Positions 944 through 23,938 of a stretch of DNA of 32,000 nt are shown piece by piece. This DNA is from an uncultured archaeon. GTDB lineage: Archaea; Iainarchaeota; Iainarchaeia; Iainarchaeales; DATDZZ01. Positions within the stretch are counted from its first letter, which is position 1; each line of letters begins with the position of its first letter. A program made the position numbers and the translations under genes. The stretch covers positions 17,710-49,709 of the forward strand of contig CAYJVY010000010.1 in NCBI GenBank assembly GCA_964373795.1, read 5' to 3'. A model generated the notes under the pieces. The model searched no databases and was not told where the DNA came from. It saw only the letters and a program-made list of their open reading frames with translations.

Positions 944-1264
944 ATGAAGATCGGAATTGTTCTTTCTTCTAGAGTTGAAGAGGTTGTGTGGAATGCTTTT
1001 CGTTTTGGTGTTCTTGCATTAAAATCAGGCCATGAAGTTAAAACCTTTTTAATCAATACAGGAGTTGAATTAGAAGAAATTTCCAGTGAAAAATTTAATG
1101 TCAATGAACAAGTAAATGGTTTTATTTCTTCTGGAGGAAAAATCTTGGCTTGTGGCACTTGTTTGAAGCACCGCGACAAAGAAGGAAGCAATGTTTGCCC
1201 AATATCTACAATGAAGGACTTGCTTAAATTAGTTGAAGAATCAGACAGAATTCTTTCCTTTTGA
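944..1264 (+). CDS. DsrE/DsrF-like sulfur-relay family protein
   Basis: AAGGAG at 931-936, then ATG at 944; the track ORF from 803 is an upstream extension into arsR. 106 aa: MKIGIVLSS...VWNAFRFG...GGKILACGTCLKHR...CPISTMKDL, typical of small DsrE-like proteins encoded next to ArsR regulators. Confidence 0.8.
   Translation: MKIGIVLSSRVEEVVWNAFRFGVLALKSGHEVKTFLINTGVELEEISSEKFNVNEQVNGFISSGGKILACGTCLKHRDKEGSNVCPISTMKDLLKLVEESDRILSF
1208..1254 (+). repeat. 47-nt exact repeat shared with the decayed DsrE-like paralog (10053-10099)
   Basis: ACAATGAAGGACTTGCTTAAATTAGTTGAAGAATCAGACAGAATTCT is identical at both sites. The extended match 1176-1254 vs 10021-10099 has about 5 mismatches. Confidence 0.9.
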
Positions 1265-9189: not shown

Positions 9190-9327
9190 TAACTGTTATA
9201 ATCCAGCAAAGAAAATAATTAATTTAGAAATTATATTTTAAGAGATACTAACAAAATCAGTTTGTTTTTGAATAATGTTTTTTCCTAAAATTTTTATCTT
9301 TAATAAATTATATTGGAGTTTTTATAA

Positions 9328-9753
9328 ATGGAAATTTTTCAATCTATTATCAAAAATTTTAGGATCCCTGGATTTTTGGCAAAATTTGTAATTTATAGTA
9401 TAGGGCTTTTTATAATATTGGGAATTCCCACAGCTCTTTTTCCTAATCCAATAATTCCATATACTAGAATGATTCCTTCAAATATTTTAGATTATGTTTT
9501 TTTATTCACTACAAGTGTTTTAGCAGGTTTTTACTTTGCATTGCCTAAAAGCAATGCATGCAATCCAAATAAAAGCGCTTTCGGTGGAGGAATTTTTGGA
9601 TTCCTTGCTTTTGCTTGTCCGACATGTATTCAGTTATTAGTGTTACTTTTTGGTTATGCGTTTTTGTTCAATATTTTAAATCCTTTAAGGCCGATTATTG
9701 GATTACTTTCAATTGGATTTTTGTTATTCGCAATTAGCAAAAAAATTCTTTAA
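9328..9753 (+). CDS. Four-helix membrane protein with intramembrane CPTC motif, hypothetical
   Basis: TTGGAG lies upstream of the ATG. 141 aa. FGGGIFGFLAFACPTCIQLLVLLFG then LNPLRPIIGLLSIGFLLFAI. Confidence 0.6.
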   Translation: MEIFQSIIKNFRIPGFLAKFVIYSIGLFIILGIPTALFPNPIIPYTRMIPSNILDYVFLFTTSVLAGFYFALPKSNACNPNKSAFGGGIFGFLAFACPTCIQLLVLLFGYAFLFNILNPLRPIIGLLSIGFLLFAISKKIL

Positions 9754-9789: not shown

Positions 9790-10112
9790 ATAAAGTTTGG
9801 AATTATAATTGGAACAATTGAACCTGAAGTGGTCTGGAATGTATTTAGATTTTGAGTTACATCATTAAAAGCAAATAATGAATAAAAATTTTTCTAATAA
9901 ACAAAGGAGTTGAAATAGAAAGTATTCGAGATGAAAAATATAGTGTAAAAGAACAAATTGATTTATTCATTGAAAACAAAGGACAAATACTAGCTTGCGG
10001 AACATGTCTAAAGTCACGCAACAAAGAAGGAAGCAATATCTGCCCAATCTCAACAATGAAGGACTTGCTTAAATTAGTTGAAGAATCAGACAGAATTCTA
10101 ACATTTGATTGA
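9790..10112 (+). pseudogene. Decayed paralog of the DsrE-like gene at 944-1264
   Basis: The start codon position reads ATA, 6 nt after a GAGGT. In-frame TGA at 9853 sits at the Gly22-equivalent. A TAA follows about 11 codons later, then a 1-nt deletion. After the frameshift the frame is open and reads GVEIESIRDEKYSVKEQIDLFIENKGQILACGTCLKSRNKEGSNICPISTMKDLLKLVEESDRILTFD. Confidence 0.85.
10053..10099 (+). repeat. 47-nt exact repeat, partner of 1208-1254
   Basis: Identical 47-mer at the 3' end of both DsrE-like copies. Confidence 0.9.
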
Positions 10113-10300: not shown

Positions 10301-10716
10301 AAAATCACTTTTTATTAAAATTGTATCAGGACTCGGTGAAAAAGTGCCTCAAACAATTACTAAATCAATCTTAACCCTTTAGCTTGTTTTAAAGGTTATC
10401 TTTTTCGCTTTATGGCAAAGCATAATAAGCGCAGATTTCATGTGAAGAGTTATAGTCCTGTCTTCACATCAATGGCTGAACACTTAACATAGGCTACCAT
10501 TAATAGCACTCTTTTCAGAGCAACCGAATAATCCTACAATGTTTGCATTTTCAATACAAACGATTAATATTGTACTTTTGTTTTTAATAAATTTTTTTAC
10601 ATTGAAAAATAAACTAATAATTGAAAACTATTTAGTTTTTCAAACTAAATCTTTTAAATAAATCGAATATGATTTAAAGTGTTGTATGCAAATCATGAAA
10701 TAAGTTGAGGGAAAGG

Positions 10717-11563: not shown

Positions 11564-12781
11564 TCAGCCAATTAGAATTTCTTTTAATGTGTTAAATGAA
11601 AACAAGTTTTTTGTGGGCGTTTCTGAAAGCAAGCTATGTGAAATTAGTTTTGATATTTGTTTGTTTTTAGAAGCATTTTTTATTGCCAAATTAAGTATGA
11701 ATTTGTTTGTTAAAATTTTTTGAATTTTTAAATCAGTTGAAAGTTCTTGCCATATTGCCTCATAAAGAAGATTTTCGTATTCTTTTAATTTATTTTCACT
11801 GAAATTATTTTCTTTAATAGATTGTAATAAAACTTGGGAAGCAACTTTCCCGCTCAAAAGTGCATTTCCAATTCCTTCCCCTGTAAAGGGATCTATTAAA
11901 CCAGCTGCATCCCCTACAAATAATACTCTGTCAAAAGAAATTTTTCTTTTTTTTAATCCACCTAATGGAAGAGTCCAGCCTTTTATTTCTGAAATCATTT
12001 TAGCGTTTTTAAACCTGTCTTTAAAATGCGGATTTTGAAGTATTTTGAATAAAATATCTTTTAGGTTTTTTTTATCAGAATATTTTAAGTGGATTCCTAA
12101 TCCGACATTTGCAGTTGTATTAGATATAGGAAAAATCCAAAAATAACCTGGAATTAGTTCATTAACAAAATGAATTTCAAGTCTATTGCTTAAACCATTT
12201 ACATTTTCAAAATATGCTCTTAATGCAATTGCTTCTGAATCTGTAAAATCAATTCCTAATTGTTTACTGGCAAAACAAGTAGAGCCGTTTGCGAACACAA
12301 TTGATTTTGTATTAAAAGTTACATGTTTATGGGTTTTAATATTTTTTGCTGAAACTAGAATAGAATCACTTTTTACTTCAAAATTTTTTACTTCAATTCC
12401 TTCCAAAACCTTTGCAACTTGTTTTGCTTTTTCAAATAAAATATTGTCAAAATTTTTTCTTTTTATGACAATTCCGCAGGTTTTTTTATTTTCCGCGTCA
12501 ATTGAAACATTTAATCCATTAGGCGAAGAAAATAACACTCCTTTTATTTTTTCATGTTCGAATTTTTCTATTTCTTCAATTAAATCCATTTCTCTCAATA
12601 AAGAAATGGATTTTCCGCTTAAGCCATCTCCACATGGCTTATCTCTAGGAAAAAATTCTTTGTCAACTAACAATACTTTTGCATTTGATTCTCTCAAAAA
12701 AATTACAGTAGAACTTCCAGCAGGTCCTGCCCCAACTACTAAAACATCAAAAATTTCTTCCAATTTTTCGCCTTTTAACAA
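11564..12781 (-). CDS. Geranylgeranyl reductase family FAD-dependent oxidoreductase (archaeal lipid saturation)
   Basis: 405 aa, TTG start. FDVLVVGAGPAGSS dinucleotide fold. VLLVDKEFFPRDKPCGDGLS matches the PRxKxCG signature. VLFVGDAAGLIDPFTGEGI. Confidence 0.9.
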   Translation of the reverse strand: MLKGEKLEEIFDVLVVGAGPAGSSTVIFLRESNAKVLLVDKEFFPRDKPCGDGLSGKSISLLREMDLIEEIEKFEHEKIKGVLFSSPNGLNVSIDAENKKTCGIVIKRKNFDNILFEKAKQVAKVLEGIEVKNFEVKSDSILVSAKNIKTHKHVTFNTKSIVFANGSTCFASKQLGIDFTDSEAIALRAYFENVNGLSNRLEIHFVNELIPGYFWIFPISNTTANVGLGIHLKYSDKKNLKDILFKILQNPHFKDRFKNAKMISEIKGWTLPLGGLKKRKISFDRVLFVGDAAGLIDPFTGEGIGNALLSGKVASQVLLQSIKENNFSENKLKEYENLLYEAIWQELSTDLKIQKILTNKFILNLAIKNASKNKQISKLISHSLLSETPTKNLFSFNTLKEILIG

Positions 12782-16248: not shown

Positions 16249-16653
16249 TTAAAGTTTTTTTTCCATATAATATTCTTTTGCAATTTTTTTATATCCTTGT
16301 TTTTCATAAAATTTTGTAGCTTTTTGATTTTTTATTTCAACATTAATGCATGAAATTTTTGCTCCAAGTTTTTTCAATCTTTTTTCAGCTTCTTTTAATA
16401 ATTTTTTTCCTATTCCCATTTTTTGATATTCTGGACTAACTCCTAATCTATAAATTGATGAATCCCAGTTATCAAAAGTAAAGAAAACACATCCAATAAT
16501 TTTTCCTTGTTCTTCTGCTACAATTATTGAGTTTTTAGGAGTCTTAGAATTAAGTTTTTTCTTTGAATCAAAGTTTTTATCAAATAATCCAACTAATTGT
16601 AGCAATTTTTTTACTTGAATATAGTCTTGTGGTTTATAGTTTCTTATTTTCAT
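16249..16653 (-). CDS. GNAT-family N-acetyltransferase
   Basis: 134 aa. IIGCVFF ... IYRLGVSPEYQKMGIGKKLLKEAEKRLKKLGA ... KFYEKQGY (acetyl-CoA binding Q/RxxGxG/A motif). Confidence 0.85.
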   Translation of the reverse strand: MKIRNYKPQDYIQVKKLLQLVGLFDKNFDSKKKLNSKTPKNSIIVAEEQGKIIGCVFFTFDNWDSSIYRLGVSPEYQKMGIGKKLLKEAEKRLKKLGAKISCINVEIKNQKATKFYEKQGYKKIAKEYYMEKKL

Positions 16654-16699: not shown

Positions 16700-16877
16700 T
16701 CATTTGTTCATTTTCTTGTCGTCAATAAATTCGTTTAACTCTGTTTGGGAATAATCAAGTGTTTTTGTGAAACCTGTTCCATCTTTTGTTAGTGGGTTTG
16801 TTATTTTTCCTTCTTCTAACTATTTTATTTGTTTGCCTGAGTCTTCTGCTACATTAATTGTTTTTTTCAAGTCGCCT
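16700..16877 (-). pseudogene. Orphan, decayed C-terminal cassette homologous to the pre-tip segment of the 1665-aa protein
   Basis: Minus-strand translation: GDLKKTINVAEDSGKQIK*LEEGKITNPLTKDGTGFTKTLDYSQTELNEFIDDKKMNK*. The first 18 residues are identical to the giant protein (GDLKKTINVAEDSGKQIKWLEEG). The Trp codon is TAG here (16820-16822). The sequence after LEEG is unrelated. There is no start codon. Confidence 0.75.
16807..16877. repeat. 71-nt near-identical direct repeat, copy A (partner 17999-18069)
   Basis: TTCCTTCTTCTAACTATTTTATTTGTTTGCCTGAGTCTTCTGCTACATTAATTGTTTTTTTCAAGTCGCCT compared with copy B: 2 mismatches, with 56 consecutive identical nt. Confidence 0.9.
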
Positions 16878-16897
16878 GATGTTGCACTAAATTGATA

Positions 16898-16955
16898 CTG
16901 CGAGGCTCGAAGAGCCCGCAGAGTTATTACAGGGTCATAGGGGCGGAGCCCCTAT
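16898..16955. other. Two adjacent GC-rich stem-loops in an AT-rich intergenic region
   Basis: Hairpin 1 (16898-16921): CTGCG(A)GGCTC-GAA-GAGCCCGCAG, 10 bp with one bulge. Hairpin 2 (16937-16955): ATAGGGG-CGGAG-CCCCTAT, 7 bp. Confidence 0.6.
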
Positions 16956-17038
16956 TGTCATTAGCCAATTGTTATTTTTAGGCCTGTTTGTATGCTTTGC
17001 TTGCTAGTTCTATTATTCCTGTTTTGGATATCAGTTAG

Positions 17039-17689
17039 TTAAAGATTATTAATTATTTTAAATATGTTTTGTTTGAACTCTTTTGGTAGTGTTTTAGCTT
17101 TATTTTCTATTGCTTTTAGGATTGCTTCCTTGACGTTTTTGTCTTTATCGTGAACAAGTTTTTCTGAGACTATTTTTTGTATTTGTGTTGGCAGGTTATT
17201 ATAATTCCAAATGATGCTGTATACAATAGTTGCCCTAGTCAGAGAATTTTTGTTGCCAGCAGCATCCGTAAAAATTTTTTGTATTTGTTTTGGTAAAATG
17301 TTGAAATTTTTTGCAATGATACCATATTTTATTGTTGGTGTTGTTTCTTCTGCTGTTTTTGGTTTTTCTAAAATTATTTTGCAAATTAAGTTGTTTATCT
17401 GTTTTTCTTTTAATGTTTCTTCGAAGGCTTTTTCATATAAATCTGAGATATATTCTGACCCTCCGTCTGTTTTTATGATTTTTTTTTGTGTAAATTTTTC
17501 AAAAAGGTTGTTGAAGTTGTTTTTATATTTTATATTGAATTTTTTGCATAGGTATTCAAAGGCGTTTTTGTATTCTTTTCCTTGATTATAGCTTGTTCCA
17601 AAATAATACCATATAGTTAAAAACAATTGTTCCTCGTAGTCCATTTCAAGGATTTTTTTTGTTGCTTTTTGTATTTCTAGTTCTTGCAT
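17039..17689 (-). CDS. Repeat-containing cytoplasmic protein, candidate immunity protein for the upstream C-terminal tip
   Basis: AAGGAG (forward CTCCTT at 17699-17704) lies 9 nt upstream of ATG 17689 and 8 nt after the giant gene stop; the track start at 17743 overlaps the giant gene. 216 aa with no signal peptide. Three HEAT-like repeats: ILPKQIQKIF, NLPTQIQKIV, TLPKEFKQNIF. Confidence 0.65.
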   Translation of the reverse strand: MQELEIQKATKKILEMDYEEQLFLTIWYYFGTSYNQGKEYKNAFEYLCKKFNIKYKNNFNNLFEKFTQKKIIKTDGGSEYISDLYEKAFEETLKEKQINNLICKIILEKPKTAEETTPTIKYGIIAKNFNILPKQIQKIFTDAAGNKNSLTRATIVYSIIWNYNNLPTQIQKIVSEKLVHDKDKNVKEAILKAIENKAKTLPKEFKQNIFKIINNL

Positions 17690-17711
17690 ATTTGTTTGCT
17701 CCTTAAATTTT

Positions 17712-20700
17712 TTATTTGCATTGGAAATTGTCATATGTTTCATATTTTGGAGGGTAAGAGGTTATTATACTTCCATCGCTTCCAACAATTGTTGCCATGA
17801 ATTTTGCTCCAATTTTTAGTAAATAGCACTCTTTTGGAGGTTTTCCGTCAATTGTTTTGCCTAGCAATTTTTTTCCAGGATTTTTAATTGACTCAAATAT
17901 TTTAGACTGAATTATTTCGTTGTCATTTAGCCCAATTTTTGCAAAATCTCCACTATCAACATGTTTTGTTTTTATGTGTTGCCAGCCCTTGTATTGGTTT
18001 CCTTCTTCTAGCCATTTTATTTGTTTGCCTGAGTCTTCTGCTACATTAATTGTTTTTTTCAAGTCGCCTCCTTTTTCTAGAACTGTTTCCATGTTTTTTA
18101 CTGGAACATTTTTTGTGTTCTTTAATCTATTTATTGCTTCGACTCCATCGTCTCCGTAATGCTTTAACAAATTCGGCAACGCATCAATTGTTTCTTTTTT
18201 TGCTCCTCTTTCGAATAGTATTCCTAGATTTTTTAATTCCTTTAACTGTGTTTTGTTAAACGTTCTAGTAATAGTACTTTTCACTCCTTTTGTTACTACT
18301 TCAAAAGTGATTTTTGCTTTTTTTGCGATTTTAACTAGATTTTCAACAGCATTTGCTATCTTGCTTAATTTGTACCATTTTTTTGCAGAATCTAAGACTC
18401 TGACTGTTTTTACACTAGCGATTCCAAAATCTACTAAAGGGCCATCAGCTGGAACTATTATTGCTATAACATTTCCAACACTTAAAAGTGTATCCACTAA
18501 TCCCCATATAGTCCATTCTCCTCTACACCAATCTCCAAAAGCAAATTCGCAAGCAATATTGAATCCAAGATCCGCAAAAGTCTTATCTGCGTTATCCTCT
18601 AATTCCAGTATTTCAACATCAATTGTTGATACAGTTCCATCTGGCAACAAATTATTTTCACTGCCATTAAGCACAGCAAAAGATGTTCCGCCAAATTGTT
18701 TGCTTAAATATTGTGTTCCATCCATTACTCCGTCTCCGTCAGAGTCTTTTTTTATAGGATTTGTTCGTGTAACAGTTGTTTCCTCTAAATCTGTTAAACC
18801 ATCGTTATCTGTGTCTTCTTTGAATGCATTTGTTCCATAAACTTTTAATTCATGATAGTCATCTAAACCATCATCATCTGAATCTTTTTTGTTTGGATCT
18901 GATCTTAATGCATAATAGTTTCCGCCGATTGGTAGAATTGTTACTTCTCCCATTTCAAATCCATCGCTTACTCCGTCTCCATCAGAATCATATTTTTGTG
19001 GATCTGTGTAAATGTATTTGAATGTTCCTGTTCGCATTCCACTTGATTCTTCATTATTTGTTAATCCATCTCCATCTGAATCTGGGGCTATTAAAATGCT
19101 TTTACAAGCAGAATTATCGAATTCGCTTGATTCTGCAATTACGTTGTCTGGATCTAGTACTAGGCAAACTCTTTCAACTCCGTATTCTGCATACCAAGTT
19201 ATTTGTGTTAGCCTCATGCTGTTGCCTGCAATGCTTGAAATTGTTGTTGAAGAAATCTCTGTTCCAGTAGAGTTATTTCTTCTAAATGAAACTTTTACAT
19301 TGTTTGCTGTTTCAGTGTCGTTGTTTCTTATATTTGCTTTTATTTTAATTGCATTGCCAGATAAGTATGTGTTTTGGAAATCAATTATTCCATTCCATGT
19401 TTTTCCATATGGATTGGAATTTGACAAAAAATAACTGCTAAAATGAGTTGTTTTTCCCCAGACGTATTTTTCTGTGGAGTTTATTCCTTGAATTTCTAAT
19501 GGTTTGAAAACCATTTTTTCTTCGTCTAAATAATAAAGCCTTAATTCGTTTGATTGTAAGCCTTTTAATTCTTCTTCTGTGTAATAGAATCTCATTTCTG
19601 CTTCATTGAATGAGTTATTACCTTTAATGTTAAATTTTGCTCCTTTGATTAAAGTAGTTGTATCAACTGTTGAAGGCAAATCAGTTGGATCTTCAACTAT
19701 CGAGATTTTTTTCCTCAAGTCTCCTTTTCCTGTGACAATTAGTTTTGTGTCTTGGCTTTGTGTTGGAATTTCTTGAATAAATATTTCTTGCCCATCTGGA
19801 ATTCCATCATTATCTGAATCATTTGTTAAAATATTTGTGCCAAAAGAGATTTCTGCTTCGTCATTTAATCCGTCTCCATCTGAATCTTTTGAAATTGGAT
19901 TTGAATGAAGTTCATTTATTTCTTTGTAGTCTGTTATTCCATCAAAATCAGAATCGTTTGTGTCAGGATTTGTTCCAAAATTAAATTCCTGTAATGCTGT
20001 CAAACCATCTCCATCCAAATCAATTAATGCATCACTTGAAATTGAATCTGTTGAAGTTTGATTTGGATTTGTTCCTTGAATAAATGCTTCAAAATAATCA
20101 TTTAATCCATCTCCATCCGAGTCAGCATTAAATGGATTTGTTTTTCCTTTGAATTCCTCTAAATTATTTAATTTGTCGCCATCAAAGTCTTCATCTGCAT
20201 CACTTACGCCATCAAAATCAGAGTCTTTTAGTAATGGGTTTGTAAGTAAAACATTTTTTTCATAGTCTTCTGGAAGAGTGTCCCCATCAAGCAAAAATGT
20301 TTTTTCCCATGTAGATTCATTTCCCGCAATATCTCTTGCAATAATTTTGTATTGGTTTTCTCCAAGGATAAACTTTGAATTGAATACAAACAAACCATTT
20401 TCATCAACATTTAAAGTTAAATTGTTTAACGTGACATAAATTCCTGGCTCTGTTTCTCCTATTATCAAGTACTCTGATTCCTCTATTGTTGTATCTGTAA
20501 TAGAGTCATTAATTGAAAGCATTGGAGGGGTATTGTCAATGATTATTTGTGTTGATTTTTCCGCTGTATTTCCTGCCTTGTCTTCTGCTGTTATTTTTAA
20601 TTCGTGTGAACCGTCTTCAAATTCTGTTGTGTTTAAATTGAATGGTAGTATTGAGTTTAAAAAATTTGAATCTAAAAATACTTGGAGTTGTTTCAAGTTT

Positions 20701-22709
20701 TTTTCTATTATGTTTGCGTTCACGGAAACAATTTGCCTTAAATGGCTTCCAGTGCTTGGATTAATGTTTTCAATTTTTGGAGGAGTGTTGTCAAATTCTA
20801 CTTGAGTTGTTTTTTCGTTTTCGTTCCCTGCTTTGTCGTTTGCATAATATTTTATTTCATGCAATCCGTCAGCGTACTTTGTAGAGTCAACTTGGTAAGG
20901 CAAATGATTTGATATCTGCAGACCATCTATGAAGAGTTTTGTTAAATCTAAGTACAAGTCGTAAGTGCTTCCAAGTACATCAAATACCCCTCGCAGAAAT
21001 GCTCCTGTCAAAGGATAAGTAATTTCAATGCTTGGAGGAGTTTTGTCTATTACGAAACTCACTTGCTTTGTTGCAGTGTTTCCTGCTTTATCTGTTGAAG
21101 AAACTAAAAGCAAGTGCTCGAATTCTGTTGAAATAATTTCTCCCAAAACATATGCTTGGTTGTTGAGTAAAAAAGTATTCGTGTCAGGGTTTAGTTCTAC
21201 TACATTAATTAATGGAAGCACGTTTGAATTGTAGAATTTTCCTTCTTCTATTCCTGTAATAAATATTTTTGGAAGAGTGTTGTCGACTGTTACTTGAATT
21301 GTTGTTGTGTTAGTGTTTCCTGCTAGGTCTTTTGCAAATAAAAGAATTTCATGTAATCCATCTGATGCTTCATTTAAAGTGTTCCAGTTAAAGGAATTAT
21401 TTTGAGTTTTTGCTTGGCCATCTATTCTCCATTCAAGAAAATTAAAGTATTTATCTGTTGCAGTGCCTGAAACACTAATGTTTTGTCTCAAGAAAGAATT
21501 GTGCAGAGGAGAAATTATTTTTACTTCTGGAGGAGTTTTATCTATTGCAAATTTGTATTCTAGAATCGATTCGTTTCCTGCTAAGTCTTTTGCTGTTGCG
21601 CGTAAAATATATTCGTTTTCATTAGAGACCTTGGATCCTGAAACAAATTCTGCAGAATTCAAAGTTGTTTGTGTTTCACTTAAATGCTTGTCTATGATTA
21701 AAATTTCAGGATTCAAATCATAATTGTAGTAAGAATTGTTTTCTACTCCTAAAAATTCAATTTTTGGAGGAGTAATGTCTAAAACTATTTCAATGCTTTC
21801 ACTTTTCCCTGTATTGCCGAATCTGTCAGTTGAAAAAACAGTAACTAAATTATTTCCATCTACTAATGGAACAGTTCCAGAATAAACCCCGCTAATCAAA
21901 GGGAACTCGTAATTTGAGTCATTCACTTGAACTACAACTGAATTAATTGTCTGCAATTGTACATCCCAAACAGTTCCAGAAACTGTTTGCATTTCTTGGT
22001 TTGTGTAAATGTTTGTTTGCGGAGATGAAATAAAAACTAAAGGAATTGTGAATTCATCTAGTAAGCTTAGGCCAGCAAATCCTTCAATCCAGGAGTTCTT
22101 GAAGTGTTCTATTGAATTAGGCGAGTTACCTATGTTCAACTGGTGTTGTGCCTTGTCATAGCTTTCTTTTGCTTTCTGTAAATGGTTTGAAGCCTGCAGG
22201 AAAACGTTTTCATCTTCTATTTCTGGTAGAACCTTTTCAATTACTTCAATCAAGTTTTTGGAAATATTTTGATCTGCTTGTACAAGCCTACTTATTGCAA
22301 ACAATAGTTTGTTGTTATCCAGATTAGAGCTCTCCCTATTGTAAAGAGTTCTTATGAAATTTCCTGCTTTTTTTTCGAAAACAAAAACATTTGCATCCAA
22401 AATCAAGTCTTGCGTAATCCAGAATTCTGGTTTAAGGCTTGCCTCGACATTTGAATCTGCTTGCAAAAGCTTGTCAAGATCGTCTTCAACTGCTTCTGGA
22501 ATCAGTTCCTGTAAAAAACTTCTTGCTTGATTTTTCAACTCAAAAGGAGTCAAGTTTTCTTGTGTAAAAACCAATTCTGTGTCATTCAAATTATTCTGTG
22601 CATTCCCGGCTGCAAAAGCGCTGGAGAAGAATACAGTTATGAATAGCAAAACACAAATGCTTTGCCAAAACTTTTTTTCCACACGCATAAATATCATCTT
22701 TCTATCCAA
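17712..22709 (-). CDS. Giant secreted/anchored surface protein: Ig-like repeat array, TSP3-like Ca-binding repeats, CARDB-like domain, pre-toxin-like segment and short variable C-terminal tip (polymorphic-toxin-like)
   Basis: 1665 aa with an N-terminal hydrophobic signal (ICVLLFITVFFSSAFA). At least six repeats of about 95 aa, of the form (I/V)DKTPP ... DGLHE ... (A/T)KD(L/K)AGN ... DNTPP. Two blocks of D-x-D-x-DG-x-x-D repeats (DSDGDGLND, DSDFDGITD, DTDNDGLTD). ANIRNNDTETANNVKVSF looks CARDB-like. Hydrophobic WGLVDTLLSVGNVIAIIVPADGPLVDFG. The last 96 aa start at GNQYKGWQHIKTKH. Confidence 0.85.
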   Translation of the reverse strand: MDRKMIFMRVEKKFWQSICVLLFITVFFSSAFAAGNAQNNLNDTELVFTQENLTPFELKNQARSFLQELIPEAVEDDLDKLLQADSNVEASLKPEFWITQDLILDANVFVFEKKAGNFIRTLYNRESSNLDNNKLLFAISRLVQADQNISKNLIEVIEKVLPEIEDENVFLQASNHLQKAKESYDKAQHQLNIGNSPNSIEHFKNSWIEGFAGLSLLDEFTIPLVFISSPQTNIYTNQEMQTVSGTVWDVQLQTINSVVVQVNDSNYEFPLISGVYSGTVPLVDGNNLVTVFSTDRFGNTGKSESIEIVLDITPPKIEFLGVENNSYYNYDLNPEILIIDKHLSETQTTLNSAEFVSGSKVSNENEYILRATAKDLAGNESILEYKFAIDKTPPEVKIISPLHNSFLRQNISVSGTATDKYFNFLEWRIDGQAKTQNNSFNWNTLNEASDGLHEILLFAKDLAGNTNTTTIQVTVDNTLPKIFITGIEEGKFYNSNVLPLINVVELNPDTNTFLLNNQAYVLGEIISTEFEHLLLVSSTDKAGNTATKQVSFVIDKTPPSIEITYPLTGAFLRGVFDVLGSTYDLYLDLTKLFIDGLQISNHLPYQVDSTKYADGLHEIKYYANDKAGNENEKTTQVEFDNTPPKIENINPSTGSHLRQIVSVNANIIEKNLKQLQVFLDSNFLNSILPFNLNTTEFEDGSHELKITAEDKAGNTAEKSTQIIIDNTPPMLSINDSITDTTIEESEYLIIGETEPGIYVTLNNLTLNVDENGLFVFNSKFILGENQYKIIARDIAGNESTWEKTFLLDGDTLPEDYEKNVLLTNPLLKDSDFDGVSDADEDFDGDKLNNLEEFKGKTNPFNADSDGDGLNDYFEAFIQGTNPNQTSTDSISSDALIDLDGDGLTALQEFNFGTNPDTNDSDFDGITDYKEINELHSNPISKDSDGDGLNDEAEISFGTNILTNDSDNDGIPDGQEIFIQEIPTQSQDTKLIVTGKGDLRKKISIVEDPTDLPSTVDTTTLIKGAKFNIKGNNSFNEAEMRFYYTEEELKGLQSNELRLYYLDEEKMVFKPLEIQGINSTEKYVWGKTTHFSSYFLSNSNPYGKTWNGIIDFQNTYLSGNAIKIKANIRNNDTETANNVKVSFRRNNSTGTEISSTTISSIAGNSMRLTQITWYAEYGVERVCLVLDPDNVIAESSEFDNSACKSILIAPDSDGDGLTNNEESSGMRTGTFKYIYTDPQKYDSDGDGVSDGFEMGEVTILPIGGNYYALRSDPNKKDSDDDGLDDYHELKVYGTNAFKEDTDNDGLTDLEETTVTRTNPIKKDSDGDGVMDGTQYLSKQFGGTSFAVLNGSENNLLPDGTVSTIDVEILELEDNADKTFADLGFNIACEFAFGDWCRGEWTIWGLVDTLLSVGNVIAIIVPADGPLVDFGIASVKTVRVLDSAKKWYKLSKIANAVENLVKIAKKAKITFEVVTKGVKSTITRTFNKTQLKELKNLGILFERGAKKETIDALPNLLKHYGDDGVEAINRLKNTKNVPVKNMETVLEKGGDLKKTINVAEDSGKQIKWLEEGNQYKGWQHIKTKHVDSGDFAKIGLNDNEIIQSKIFESIKNPGKKLLGKTIDGKPPKECYLLKIGAKFMATIVGSDGSIITSYPPKYETYDNFQCK
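17999..18069. repeat. 71-nt near-identical direct repeat, copy B (partner 16807-16877)
   Basis: Lies inside the giant gene and encodes GDLKKTINVAEDSGKQIKWLEEG, immediately before the 96-aa C-terminal tip. Confidence 0.9.
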
Positions 22710-23938
22710 ATATCTGATTCGCTAACTGTAAGATTTGGCTTTGGTACAATGCACGTATTGCCCGAACATCCATAAGAGCAGTTTTCTACAGATTGATCGT
22801 TAATATAGTAAGAACTGCCTTCAGAGCAATAAACGCCGTAACTTGAACTGCATGTATAGTCGTGATATAATTGTTTTTTTCTTAACTGTGAGCCAGAACA
22901 ATAGAATTCAAAAGAGTCAGCATAGTTTTTGTTGTCACAGTTTTCAATTGTTTTTGTCTCTGTTGAATTGCTTGAAGTACAGCTTGCAGAAGAGCATCCA
23001 GGAGTAGTAATTGTTCTGCTTTGAATAATGTTGTCATTAGAACAATAGTTATTGCTCCAATTTCCATAAGTAGTGTCTCCACAATCTTTTTGTTTTACTT
23101 TTTGTGTTTGGTTTAAACAAGAAGCACTAGTAGTTGAAGGATTCAAACAATATGATTCAGCATAGTCTCTGTAAACATCTCCGTCATAGCAGTAATTGTT
23201 TCCTGTGTATCCTGTTGTTCCACAGTCAGATGCTTTAGTGCAGGCAAAGGTTTTACATTGTCCACTTGAACAGTACTGGTTTGTTCCACAGGATTGATAT
23301 AATTCTGATTCTGTTGAATTGTTGGAATAACAGTTTCCGCTTGAACAGCCTTTTAGTGTTACACTTCTTTGCCTATAAACATTGTTGTCATTACATGTGT
23401 AACTCCAAGACCCATAAGAATTGTCTCCGCATTCTTGTTTTTTGTCTCCCCAGTCTCCACAGGAATTCTTCCAGTAAACGTCATTGCTTAAACAAGCATG
23501 AGTAAAATTTGCAGTGCAGACTTGTGGAATGAATTCAACATATAAATTCCATGTTCCAGATCCACTATATCTTTTGATTTGAAAGTGGTAGTAACCTGTT
23601 GTAGAAATGTTGAATTGAACTGTTTCGTTTGCACTGCCAGTGGTTCCAGATCCAACTTGGCCTGAAATACAGTTTTTATAAATATATAAATCAAAGTCTG
23701 CTCCGCTTGGGCCATAAAGATATGCTTTATATGTTCCTGACTTGTCTAAGTAGACATCAACCCAATCTTCTTCATCTAGGATTGGGTAAAGCGACTCTGA
23801 TGCCCAATTGTTTACATTCATTTTTTTTCCAGGGCCATCACAGTGATCCCATATAAAATGAGTAGCATTAACACTTGGCAGTAGTAAAAGTGTTATTAGT
23901 AAAATTAGTAAAAATCCAAGGATTTTTGTTTGAGTCAT
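22694..23938 (-). CDS. Secreted Cys-rich repeat protein with an N-terminal PPC-like (pre-peptidase C-terminal-like) beta domain
   Basis: 414 aa. Signal peptide LGFLLILLITLLLLPSVNA. DWVDVYLDKSGTYKAYLYGPSGADFDLYIY ... YHFQIKRYSGSGTWNLYV looks PPC-like. Repeated Cys modules follow (CGDNSYGSWSYTCNDNNVYRQRSVTLKGCSSGNC and CGDTTYGNWSNNYCSNDNIIQSRTITTPGCSSASC), with many N-x-S/T sequons. Overlaps the giant gene start by 16 nt. Confidence 0.7.
   Translation of the reverse strand: MTQTKILGFLLILLITLLLLPSVNATHFIWDHCDGPGKKMNVNNWASESLYPILDEEDWVDVYLDKSGTYKAYLYGPSGADFDLYIYKNCISGQVGSGTTGSANETVQFNISTTGYYHFQIKRYSGSGTWNLYVEFIPQVCTANFTHACLSNDVYWKNSCGDWGDKKQECGDNSYGSWSYTCNDNNVYRQRSVTLKGCSSGNCYSNNSTESELYQSCGTNQYCSSGQCKTFACTKASDCGTTGYTGNNYCYDGDVYRDYAESYCLNPSTTSASCLNQTQKVKQKDCGDTTYGNWSNNYCSNDNIIQSRTITTPGCSSASCTSSNSTETKTIENCDNKNYADSFEFYCSGSQLRKKQLYHDYTCSSSYGVYCSEGSSYYINDQSVENCSYGCSGNTCIVPKPNLTVSESDIWIER

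Follow-up and report, generated by a model that had tools for sequence, protein, structure and literature searches.

The giant gene and its repeated segment

The 32,000-nucleotide (nt) stretch analyzed here (contig CAYJVY010000010.1, positions 17,710 to 49,709; hereafter, the window) carries on its minus strand a giant gene (17712..22709) for a secreted surface protein, the 3' part of which contains a short segment that is found again, almost unchanged, downstream of the gene. The protein is 1665 amino acids (aa) long when read from a TTG codon and 1661 aa long when read from the ATG used in the database (P0001), and an identical protein is present in the representative protein library. Its N-terminus is hydrophobic and resembles a signal peptide, while Pfam recognizes the Big_13 (7e-25), Glucodextran_B (8e-22), TSP3_bac (1e-19) and CARDB (1e-6) domains. 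The layout is one of immunoglobulin (Ig)-like domains and bacterial TSP3 calcium-binding repeats, followed by a hydrophobic pre-toxin region and then by a C-terminal toxin domain. The long, repeat-containing region for secretion or presentation that is expected at the N-terminus of a polymorphic toxin is, therefore, present. Behind the giant gene, in the direction of its transcription, lie a candidate immunity gene, the remnant of an insertion sequence (IS), the second or orphan copy of the segment with a short tail, and a GNAT acetyltransferase gene.

A repeat search of the window delimited the segment as a direct repeat of 72 nt, at 16806-16877 and 17998-18069, with 97% identity (70/72 matching positions) and a period of 1192 nt between the copies. 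The mismatches are found at 16819 and 16821 and are followed by a run of 56 identical nt. The 53-nt exact core of the repeat occurs exactly twice in the window and not once in 100 dinucleotide-preserving shuffles, while the 60 nt flanking the copies on each side agree at only 17/60 and 18/60 positions, which is the random level. The original prediction of a near-identical pair with two mismatches, lying between unrelated flanks, was thereby confirmed, as were the translations it gave for the two copies. The first copy (17998..18069, minus strand) lies within the giant gene and translates as GDLKKTINVAEDSGKQIKWLEEG, after which 95 residues and the stop codon follow. In the orphan copy (16806..16877, minus strand), TGG is replaced by TAG at 16820-16822 and CTA, synonymously, by TTA at 16817-16819, such that a stop replaces the Trp, and the reading continues as a different and shorter tail, KITNPLTKDGTGFTKTLDYSQTELNEFIDDKKMNK, up to a TGA stop at 16700-02. 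As TAG terminates 3/26 long open reading frames (ORFs) in the window, it should be considered as a genuine stop here.

The data are metagenome-derived, short-read graphs branch at a repeat, and IS hairpins, such as those found between the two copies, are frequently located at contig ends. One should thus consider that the tandem arrangement could be an artefact of the assembly or of the population, in which two co-existing haplotypes were stitched together via the shared 72 nt. One haplotype would carry the present end of the toxin (the "tip") together with the immunity gene and the IS end, and the other would carry the TAG-containing repeat, the tail and the GNAT gene directly after the giant gene. 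As an independent check, we relied on two unitigs of the Logan assembly of run ERR3478686, recovered by exact-protein look-ups, and both repeat junctions recur there. One unitig (L008, 1196 bp) begins 30 nt ahead of the TGG variant, covers the tip, the candidate immunity gene and the GC-rich hairpins and stops 30 nt inside the orphan copy, while the other (L001, 1554 bp) runs from 30 nt ahead of the TAG variant through the tail and into the GNAT gene. These break points are those expected from a k=31 graph at a true repeat and, since L008 spans it, the junction between the hairpins and the orphan copy is present in the reads. DNA in which a repeat copy follows the hairpins does, therefore, physically exist. 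Moreover, as the copies differ at two positions, an assembler with k above 72 can resolve them, and the 49.7-kb NCBI contig holds both. If the main gene of a haplotype contained the TAG, moreover, its protein would be truncated. An artefact of this kind is thus, in our view, very unlikely.

The toxin domain and the position of the repeat within it

The C-terminus of the giant protein is not recognized by Pfam. A phmmer search of the PDB with its last 129 aa (17715..18101, minus strand), however, matched 7m5f_C at E=1.5e-4 (residues 6-102, ~24% identity), which is the CdiA-CT of Serratia marcescens BWH57 (PDB 7M5F). An exhaustive HMMER search of 1.8 billion representatives returned 36 relatives beyond the giant protein itself, sharing the pattern WLExG...GWxHI...H...SNGYIVTxYP, and a profile built from 18 relatives matches 7m5f_C at E=1.5e-19. 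The AlphaFold2 model of the domain, built on the alignment of these 18 relatives, reached a mean predicted local distance difference test (pLDDT) value of 94.1. When this predicted fold was searched with Foldseek, the best match was again 7m5f_C (E=2.8e-7, template modelling (TM) scores 0.63/0.68, 117 aligned columns), followed by a second, weak match to the colicin D tRNase, and weak PBECR1 and EndoU matches were found among the family members. The depositors of 7M5F described it as a BECR-fold nuclease domain with a candidate active site of H47, E51, H52 and R89 (PMC8616854). Both His residues are retained in the helix GWQHIKTKH, which opens the 95-aa variable core of the domain (17715..17999, minus strand). 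The domain can thus be predicted to adopt the BECR fold and is presumably a ribonuclease (RNase). Together, the delivery-type architecture and the toxin homology support the suggestion that this is a polymorphic-toxin locus.

The repeat had been regarded as a handle placed ahead of the toxin tip, and this view was not upheld. All alignments place the 23 residues that the repeat encodes within the toxin domain and not ahead of it, and in the AlphaFold2 model, they form the N-terminal beta-hairpin of the fold, with the strands TINVAE (E17-22) and IKWLE (E28-32). In the family alignment, W30 and L31 are invariant while E32 and G34 are nearly so, all of these lie within the hairpin, and the candidate catalytic helix (GWxHIxxxH) starts five residues beyond it. 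As modeled, what had been called the tip corresponds to the domain's catalytic core, while the handle is its first structural element. One could also argue that the repeat is merely the most conserved part of a family with uniform tips. The hairpin is indeed the most conserved segment of the family, but the tips are not uniform, as relatives with the same pre-toxin linker carry cores that are 24-41% identical or different ends altogether, this being the variable C-terminal toxin expected of a polymorphic-toxin protein. Furthermore, the 97% DNA identity within the locus cannot come from protein conservation.

The pre-toxin region, at ~18100-18580 (minus strand, residues ~1375-1535), is common to the giant protein, to two family members (P0002 and P0011) and to a related locus described below (L004). 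It consists of a hydrophobic stretch (…GDW..GEW…IIVPADGPL…SVKT…) and then a helical linker, and no Pfam family, pre-toxin families included, matches it in the giant protein at E<=10. A resemblance to the repeat was also seen in the GNAT gene, where a 36-nt stretch (16501-16536, encoding …IIVAEEQGKII…) is 78% identical to a part of the repeat (16832-16867 and 18024-18059, encoding …INVAEDSGKQI…). This is probably a chance convergence of beta-hairpin-encoding sequences, microhomology near the edge of the island being also possible.

The candidate immunity gene

The gene directly after the toxin encodes 216 aa (17039..17689, minus strand) from an ATG preceded by GGAG. This ORF begins 22 nt past the toxin stop and is the form called in public assemblies, although a longer reading of 234 aa, from 17743, is available. 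The 216-aa protein has no Pfam or NCBIfam match, and a search of 5.8 billion proteins returned only the protein itself. Neither the 234-aa reading nor P0001 was on record when looked up exactly. A single-sequence AlphaFold2 model of the 216-aa protein is mostly helical, with a pLDDT of 59, and is too poor for a fold search. From its position only, we infer that this ORFan is the immunity gene.

Related loci and their breakpoints

Three loci related to that in the window carry toxins of the same family together with downstream genes. In the first (L004, Logan SRR8536198), a large protein has this toxin at its C-terminus, behind which come a gene for 184 aa, the orphan toxin P0021, a gene for 152 aa and the beginning of another copy. 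Between the main and orphan toxins of this locus, DNA identity is 60% over 172 nt upstream, rises to 87% in a tract of 112 nt ending exactly at WLE[ED]G and falls to 52% beyond it. The second (L005, a Candidatus Methanoperedens metagenome-assembled genome, NJD75615.1) contains a toxin end and a gene, then an orphan (P0005) with a gene for 156 aa behind it, and finally a second giant gene of the Ig/TSP3 type. The third (L048) contains the toxin P0004, two immunity-like genes and an IS110 transposase. Several family representatives are short ORFs beginning in the pre-toxin linker, and two are decayed fragments. One of these (P0006, in L003) ends 11 aa past WLENG and lies beside housekeeping genes, while the other (P0008, in L002) starts inside the hairpin and stops mid-domain, its DNA being ~80% identical to the window's tip over ~150 nt. 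Breakpoints are found elsewhere, too, as P0003 diverges past IKW and P0011 already well upstream.

These comparisons support the idea that the repeated segment is a switch point between conserved and variable sequence in related genes. Judged from the alignments, the conserved linker and hairpin appear to behave as a homology tract at the level of the family, with the core and the downstream gene seeming to change together. The suggestion of a recombination handle for tip swapping thus stands for the family, given the intact orphan toxin-immunity modules of related archaeal contigs, of which that of L004 is joined at WLE[ED]G, but does not extend to the window's own orphan, which, as argued below, is probably a relic. 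One could go further and propose that the exchange point is no pre-toxin motif but the junction inside the toxin fold, after the hairpin (WLE[ED]G), such that core and immunity gene would be shuffled with the hairpin serving as a built-in recombination site and with IS200/IS605-type elements moving or trimming the cassettes. This would be an archaeal intradomain system, spanning a DPANN-like lineage and Methanoperedens. The recurrent intrafold junction is seen in a single clean profile (that of L004), in the window and in a small number of fragments. We find such a system rather doubtful.

The post-toxin genes of the three loci (L004, 2530-2988; L005, 1511-1981; L048, 9355-9810 and 9929-10603) form a family of ~150-220 aa that shares the C-terminal motif G-x-[YW]-[IV]...GRLD[IV] and is likely the immunity family of this toxin clade. 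No member of this family is found in the window. Closer counterparts or alternative haplotypes of the locus were not found: the exact DNA of the repeat has 0 matches in GTDB genomes, protein-guided scans of genome and metagenome collections returned no relatives, and a word-index protein search with the C-terminal 288 aa of the giant protein returned nothing.

The orphan copy and its tail

The orphan copy has no start codon, and the sequence upstream of it has no homology to the giant gene. Since the L002 relative reads TGG CTG where the orphan reads TAG TTA, the latter is the derived state. The tail (16700..16807, minus strand; KITNPLTKDGTGFTKTLDYSQTELNEFIDDKKMNK*, 35 codons and TGA) is a stub without detectable relatives. 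It measures 35 aa against the ~95 aa of the family core, lacks the GWxHIxxxH motif and is preceded by the stop codon. Against the family hidden Markov model (HMM), it scores 0.3 bits, while the other reading frames score nothing. The peptide with the Trp restored has no homologue in the word index of 5.8 billion proteins, blastp and tblastn against the fetched proteins and loci gave chance matches only, and a blastn comparison of the tail DNA with the window and with the related loci yielded only AT-rich noise. The next gene encodes a GNAT acetyltransferase (Acetyltransf_1, 9e-20) that has its own AT-rich upstream region, and no immunity gene follows.

Two origins of the tail were tried and rejected. 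By eye, it could be matched to ...NGFIVTSHPEDKLVEFICK and so be read as the end of a homologous toxin after an internal deletion, yet the score of 0.3 bits and the empty result for the other frames do not allow this. Descent from a TSP3 repeat (ITNPLTKD compared with LTNPLLKD) was rejected as chance, with E ~1 and no support from the DNA.

The original prediction took the orphan for a C-terminal cassette holding an alternative toxin tip, and it could, accordingly, be a functional spare, with recombination at the 72-nt repeat replacing the present tip by a shorter alternative toxic one. Three points speak for this, namely, the near-identical repeat with unrelated flanks, the swap-ready orphans of L004 and L005, and the experimental precedent of Salmonella Rhs, where recombination between main and orphan genes via a shared stretch of 522 bp at 95% identity was demonstrated (PMC3967940). 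Indeed, of what one would expect in a functional orphan, the stretch of near-identity to the main gene (72 nt, 97%) is found, but an intact and complete toxin ORF and an immunity gene of its own are both missing. The stop lies inside the orphan's repeat, in a genome where TAG is used as a stop, with only 14 nt of homology beyond it. The tail, with 35 aa where the family core has ~95 aa, carries no His motif, and a recombinant would lose the resident immunity gene and find the GNAT gene next. A full-length protein ending in the orphan tail was also looked for, and none was found in the 5.8-billion-protein index or among the fetched proteins and loci. Were the two copies to cross over, the sole outcome would be loss of the toxin core together with the 216-aa gene, and the protein left would be truncated. 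The spare-tip explanation is thus already largely refuted, and we give it hardly any credence, while considering it probable that the orphan copy is a non-functional relic.

The IS200/IS605 remnant at the joint

The joint between the 216-aa gene and the orphan copy presents a GC peak of 55%, a fold z of -3.1 and two perfect or near-perfect hairpins. We identified it as a truncated right end of the IS200/IS605 type (16894..16962, plus strand), consisting of a double hairpin and a terminal TGTCATT. Hairpin 1 (16898-16921, plus strand) reads CTGCGAGGCTC-GAA-GAGCCCGCAG and hairpin 2 (16937-16955, plus strand) reads ATAGGGGC-GGA-GCCCCTAT. The region was also checked for a tRNA-fragment attachment (att) site or a known RNA, and neither an Rfam match nor a tRNA was found. 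The 24-mer of the hairpin, ATAGGGGCTCCGCCCCTATGACCC, is found exactly in 38 Joint Genome Institute (JGI) metagenome contigs, often at contig ends. In 13/38 of these, the two-hairpin unit lies just downstream of a Y1 transposase gene (PF01797, E ~1e-11) in a fixed orientation, with a related ATACTGCG...CGCAG hairpin at the opposite (left) end of the element. Hairpin 1 is identical among contigs, while the inner stem of hairpin 2 varies by compensatory changes (GGCTC/GAGCC, GGTGC/GCACC and GGCTT/AAGCC).

The likeness between the window and the IS200/IS605 elements of the 13 contigs is thus in the GC-rich double hairpin, which matches the right end downstream of their Y1_Tnp genes. The difference is that the window retains this right end only. 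Of the features that define such elements, namely, a Y1 transposase and subterminal hairpins at both ends, neither is complete here: a tblastn search of the window with the associated TnpA protein gave no match, the left-end motif does not occur in it, and the hairpins are those of the right end alone. What lies beside the orphan should, therefore, be considered a scar and not an active element. The outer terminus of the remnant points to the 216-aa gene and its inner side to the orphan copy. It breaks off roughly where the transposase stop codon would lie, at a distance of 10-17 nt from the repeat edge, and residual IS similarity may extend as far as 16878, which is the edge of repeat copy 2.

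The element itself is widespread. The 38 contigs (L009-L046) span 31-60% GC and the associated Y1 transposases are 39-80% identical. In some contigs, the same hairpin (ATAGGGGCTCCGCCCCTA[AT]GACCCC) is put to a different use, being repeated in tandem every ~27 nt with no transposase close by (L031, ~12120-12200; L036, ~10480-10620; L043, ~9300-9420; and L046).

The position of the scar raises the possibility that one mobile unit brought in the toxin core, the immunity gene and the IS end at the same time. It would have entered the gene at the hairpin sequence, either by a circular intermediate undergoing a single crossover or through a rearrangement associated with IS200/IS605. The orphan copy would then be the original, possibly non-toxic, end of the gene and not a displaced older toxin. 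The block is, indeed, bounded exactly by the direct repeats, it terminates in the right-end remnant only 17 nt from the repeat edge, and the tail has no toxin features. However, with the outer end of the IS toward the immunity gene and the inner end toward the orphan, excision by a Y1 transposase would mobilize the orphan side and not the toxin-immunity block. The window, moreover, contains no transposase, left end, integrase or other recombinase, none of the 38 IS-bearing contigs carries a toxin domain, and as the hairpin belongs to the toxin fold, the ancestor must already have had at least the start of the toxin domain. Joint arrival of the toxin block and the IS end thus fits less well than does insertion of an IS followed by a later deletion, and we consider such a mobile unit unlikely.

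Host and neighboring genes

The window encodes GatE (equivalog, 783 bits) and a protein of the geranylgeranyl-reductase family, from which we take the host to be an archaeon, plausibly of a DPANN-like lineage. The GC content of the window is ~31%. Directly upstream of the giant gene and overlapping its start by 16 nt lies a gene for a Cys-rich secreted protein of 414 aa (22694-23938, minus strand). Its repeated Cys module (…VYW.NSCG…C…) recurs in the N-terminal parts of family toxins (P0032, 8e-18; P0009, 8e-9; and P0024), and the protein probably acts as a functional partner or represents a presentation module that has split off. Farther away, an unlisted second DsrE-like coding stretch at ~9825-10098 is 76% identical over ~280 nt to 980-1254 (plus strand), matching the 3' part of the DsrE-like ORF at 803-1264. 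The last 127 nt are 84% identical, and as both copies keep the frame (GKILACGTCLK… and GQILACGTCLK…), the stretch is a paralogue.

A proposed history of the locus

Taken together, we consider it likely that this is a polymorphic-toxin locus of a low-GC archaeon and that its orphan copy is the decayed leftover of an earlier replacement of the toxin end. According to this proposal, the catalytic core and the immunity gene would be exchanged as a unit in the toxin family, with the conserved pre-toxin linker and hairpin serving as the site of homologous recombination. An event of this kind in the window would have brought in the core and immunity gene found now and displaced the earlier 3' end in the downstream direction, and an IS would have inserted downstream of the immunity gene. 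The displaced copy would then have decayed, gaining two transitions, one of them a nonsense change, while a deletion would have removed the transposase and left end of the neighboring IS together with the 5' side of the displaced copy. Most of the old core of this copy and its immunity gene would have been lost, too.

Several points weigh against the replacement history and should be considered when referring to it. An identity of 97% over only 72 nt is odd for a relic that is otherwise eroded and requires either a recent event or gene conversion. The order of IS insertion, deletion and displacement is beyond reconstruction from one genome, and a close relative with the pre-event arrangement was not found in the exact search of GTDB or in the genome and metagenome scans. 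The unitig graph is, furthermore, compatible with some cells carrying a different arrangement. As for the genes themselves, the 216-aa ORFan has no relationship to the ~150-aa proteins encoded after the toxin in the three related loci and, of the candidate active-site residues of 7M5F, E51 and R89 align with Lys in the phmmer alignment. Finally, toxicity, RNase activity and immunity are all predictions here.

Comparison with known systems and significance

The closest parallels are the orphan modules of Rhs and CdiA, such as rhs-main together with rhs-CT-orphan of Salmonella Typhimurium (Koskiniemi et al. 2014, PMC3967940). There, as here, a large delivery protein ends in a variable C-terminal toxin with an immunity gene, in the window a candidate one, directly after it, and downstream fragments keep a conserved upstream coding stretch that serves as a substrate for homologous recombination. 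The shared stretch of the window, however, is only 72 nt long and lies inside the toxin fold, whereas theirs precedes a VENN or PxxxxDPxGL demarcation motif. The orphan of the window is, moreover, dead, having a stop, a 35-aa stub, no core and no immunity gene, and the host is an archaeon, with no type VI secretion system (T6SS) or two-partner secretion (TPS) genes in the window. The toxin domain itself resembles CdiA-CT of BWH57 (7M5F; CASP14 target H1065; PMC8616854) in the conserved beta-hairpin, the GxxHIxxxH helix and the C-terminal SNGY-type strand. In 7M5F, every contact residue of the toxin-immunity interface comes after the hairpin. It differs in being carried by an archaeal Ig/TSP3-repeat surface protein and not by a CdiA filament, and the neighboring gene is unrelated to the 98-aa CdiI of BWH57. 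Among the Pfam matches of the giant protein and its neighbors, there is no CdiB, TPS domain, haemagglutinin/FHA (filamentous haemagglutinin) repeat or VENN motif. The locus thus shares a toxin domain with contact-dependent growth inhibition (CDI) but is not a CDI system.

Archaeal polymorphic toxin systems were reportedly predicted by comparative genomics by Makarova and colleagues in 2019 (in mBio), and these are said to resemble the present locus in comprising large secreted archaeal proteins, variable C-terminal toxin domains and adjacent small immunity-like genes. With such toxins having been predicted earlier, the recurrent junction inside the toxin fold, which points to an unusual place of exchange, may be the sole new feature here.

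The orphan copy that first drew attention is a dead remnant and adds little alone. As archaeal cell-to-cell antagonism is known mostly from predictions, the locus as a whole nonetheless offers a concrete and testable example, presenting a giant archaeal surface protein with a toxin domain that has a solved bacterial homologue (7M5F), together with intact orphan arrays in relatives. It suggests that archaeal toxins diversify by the same logic of displacement and recombination as do the bacterial Rhs and CdiA loci.

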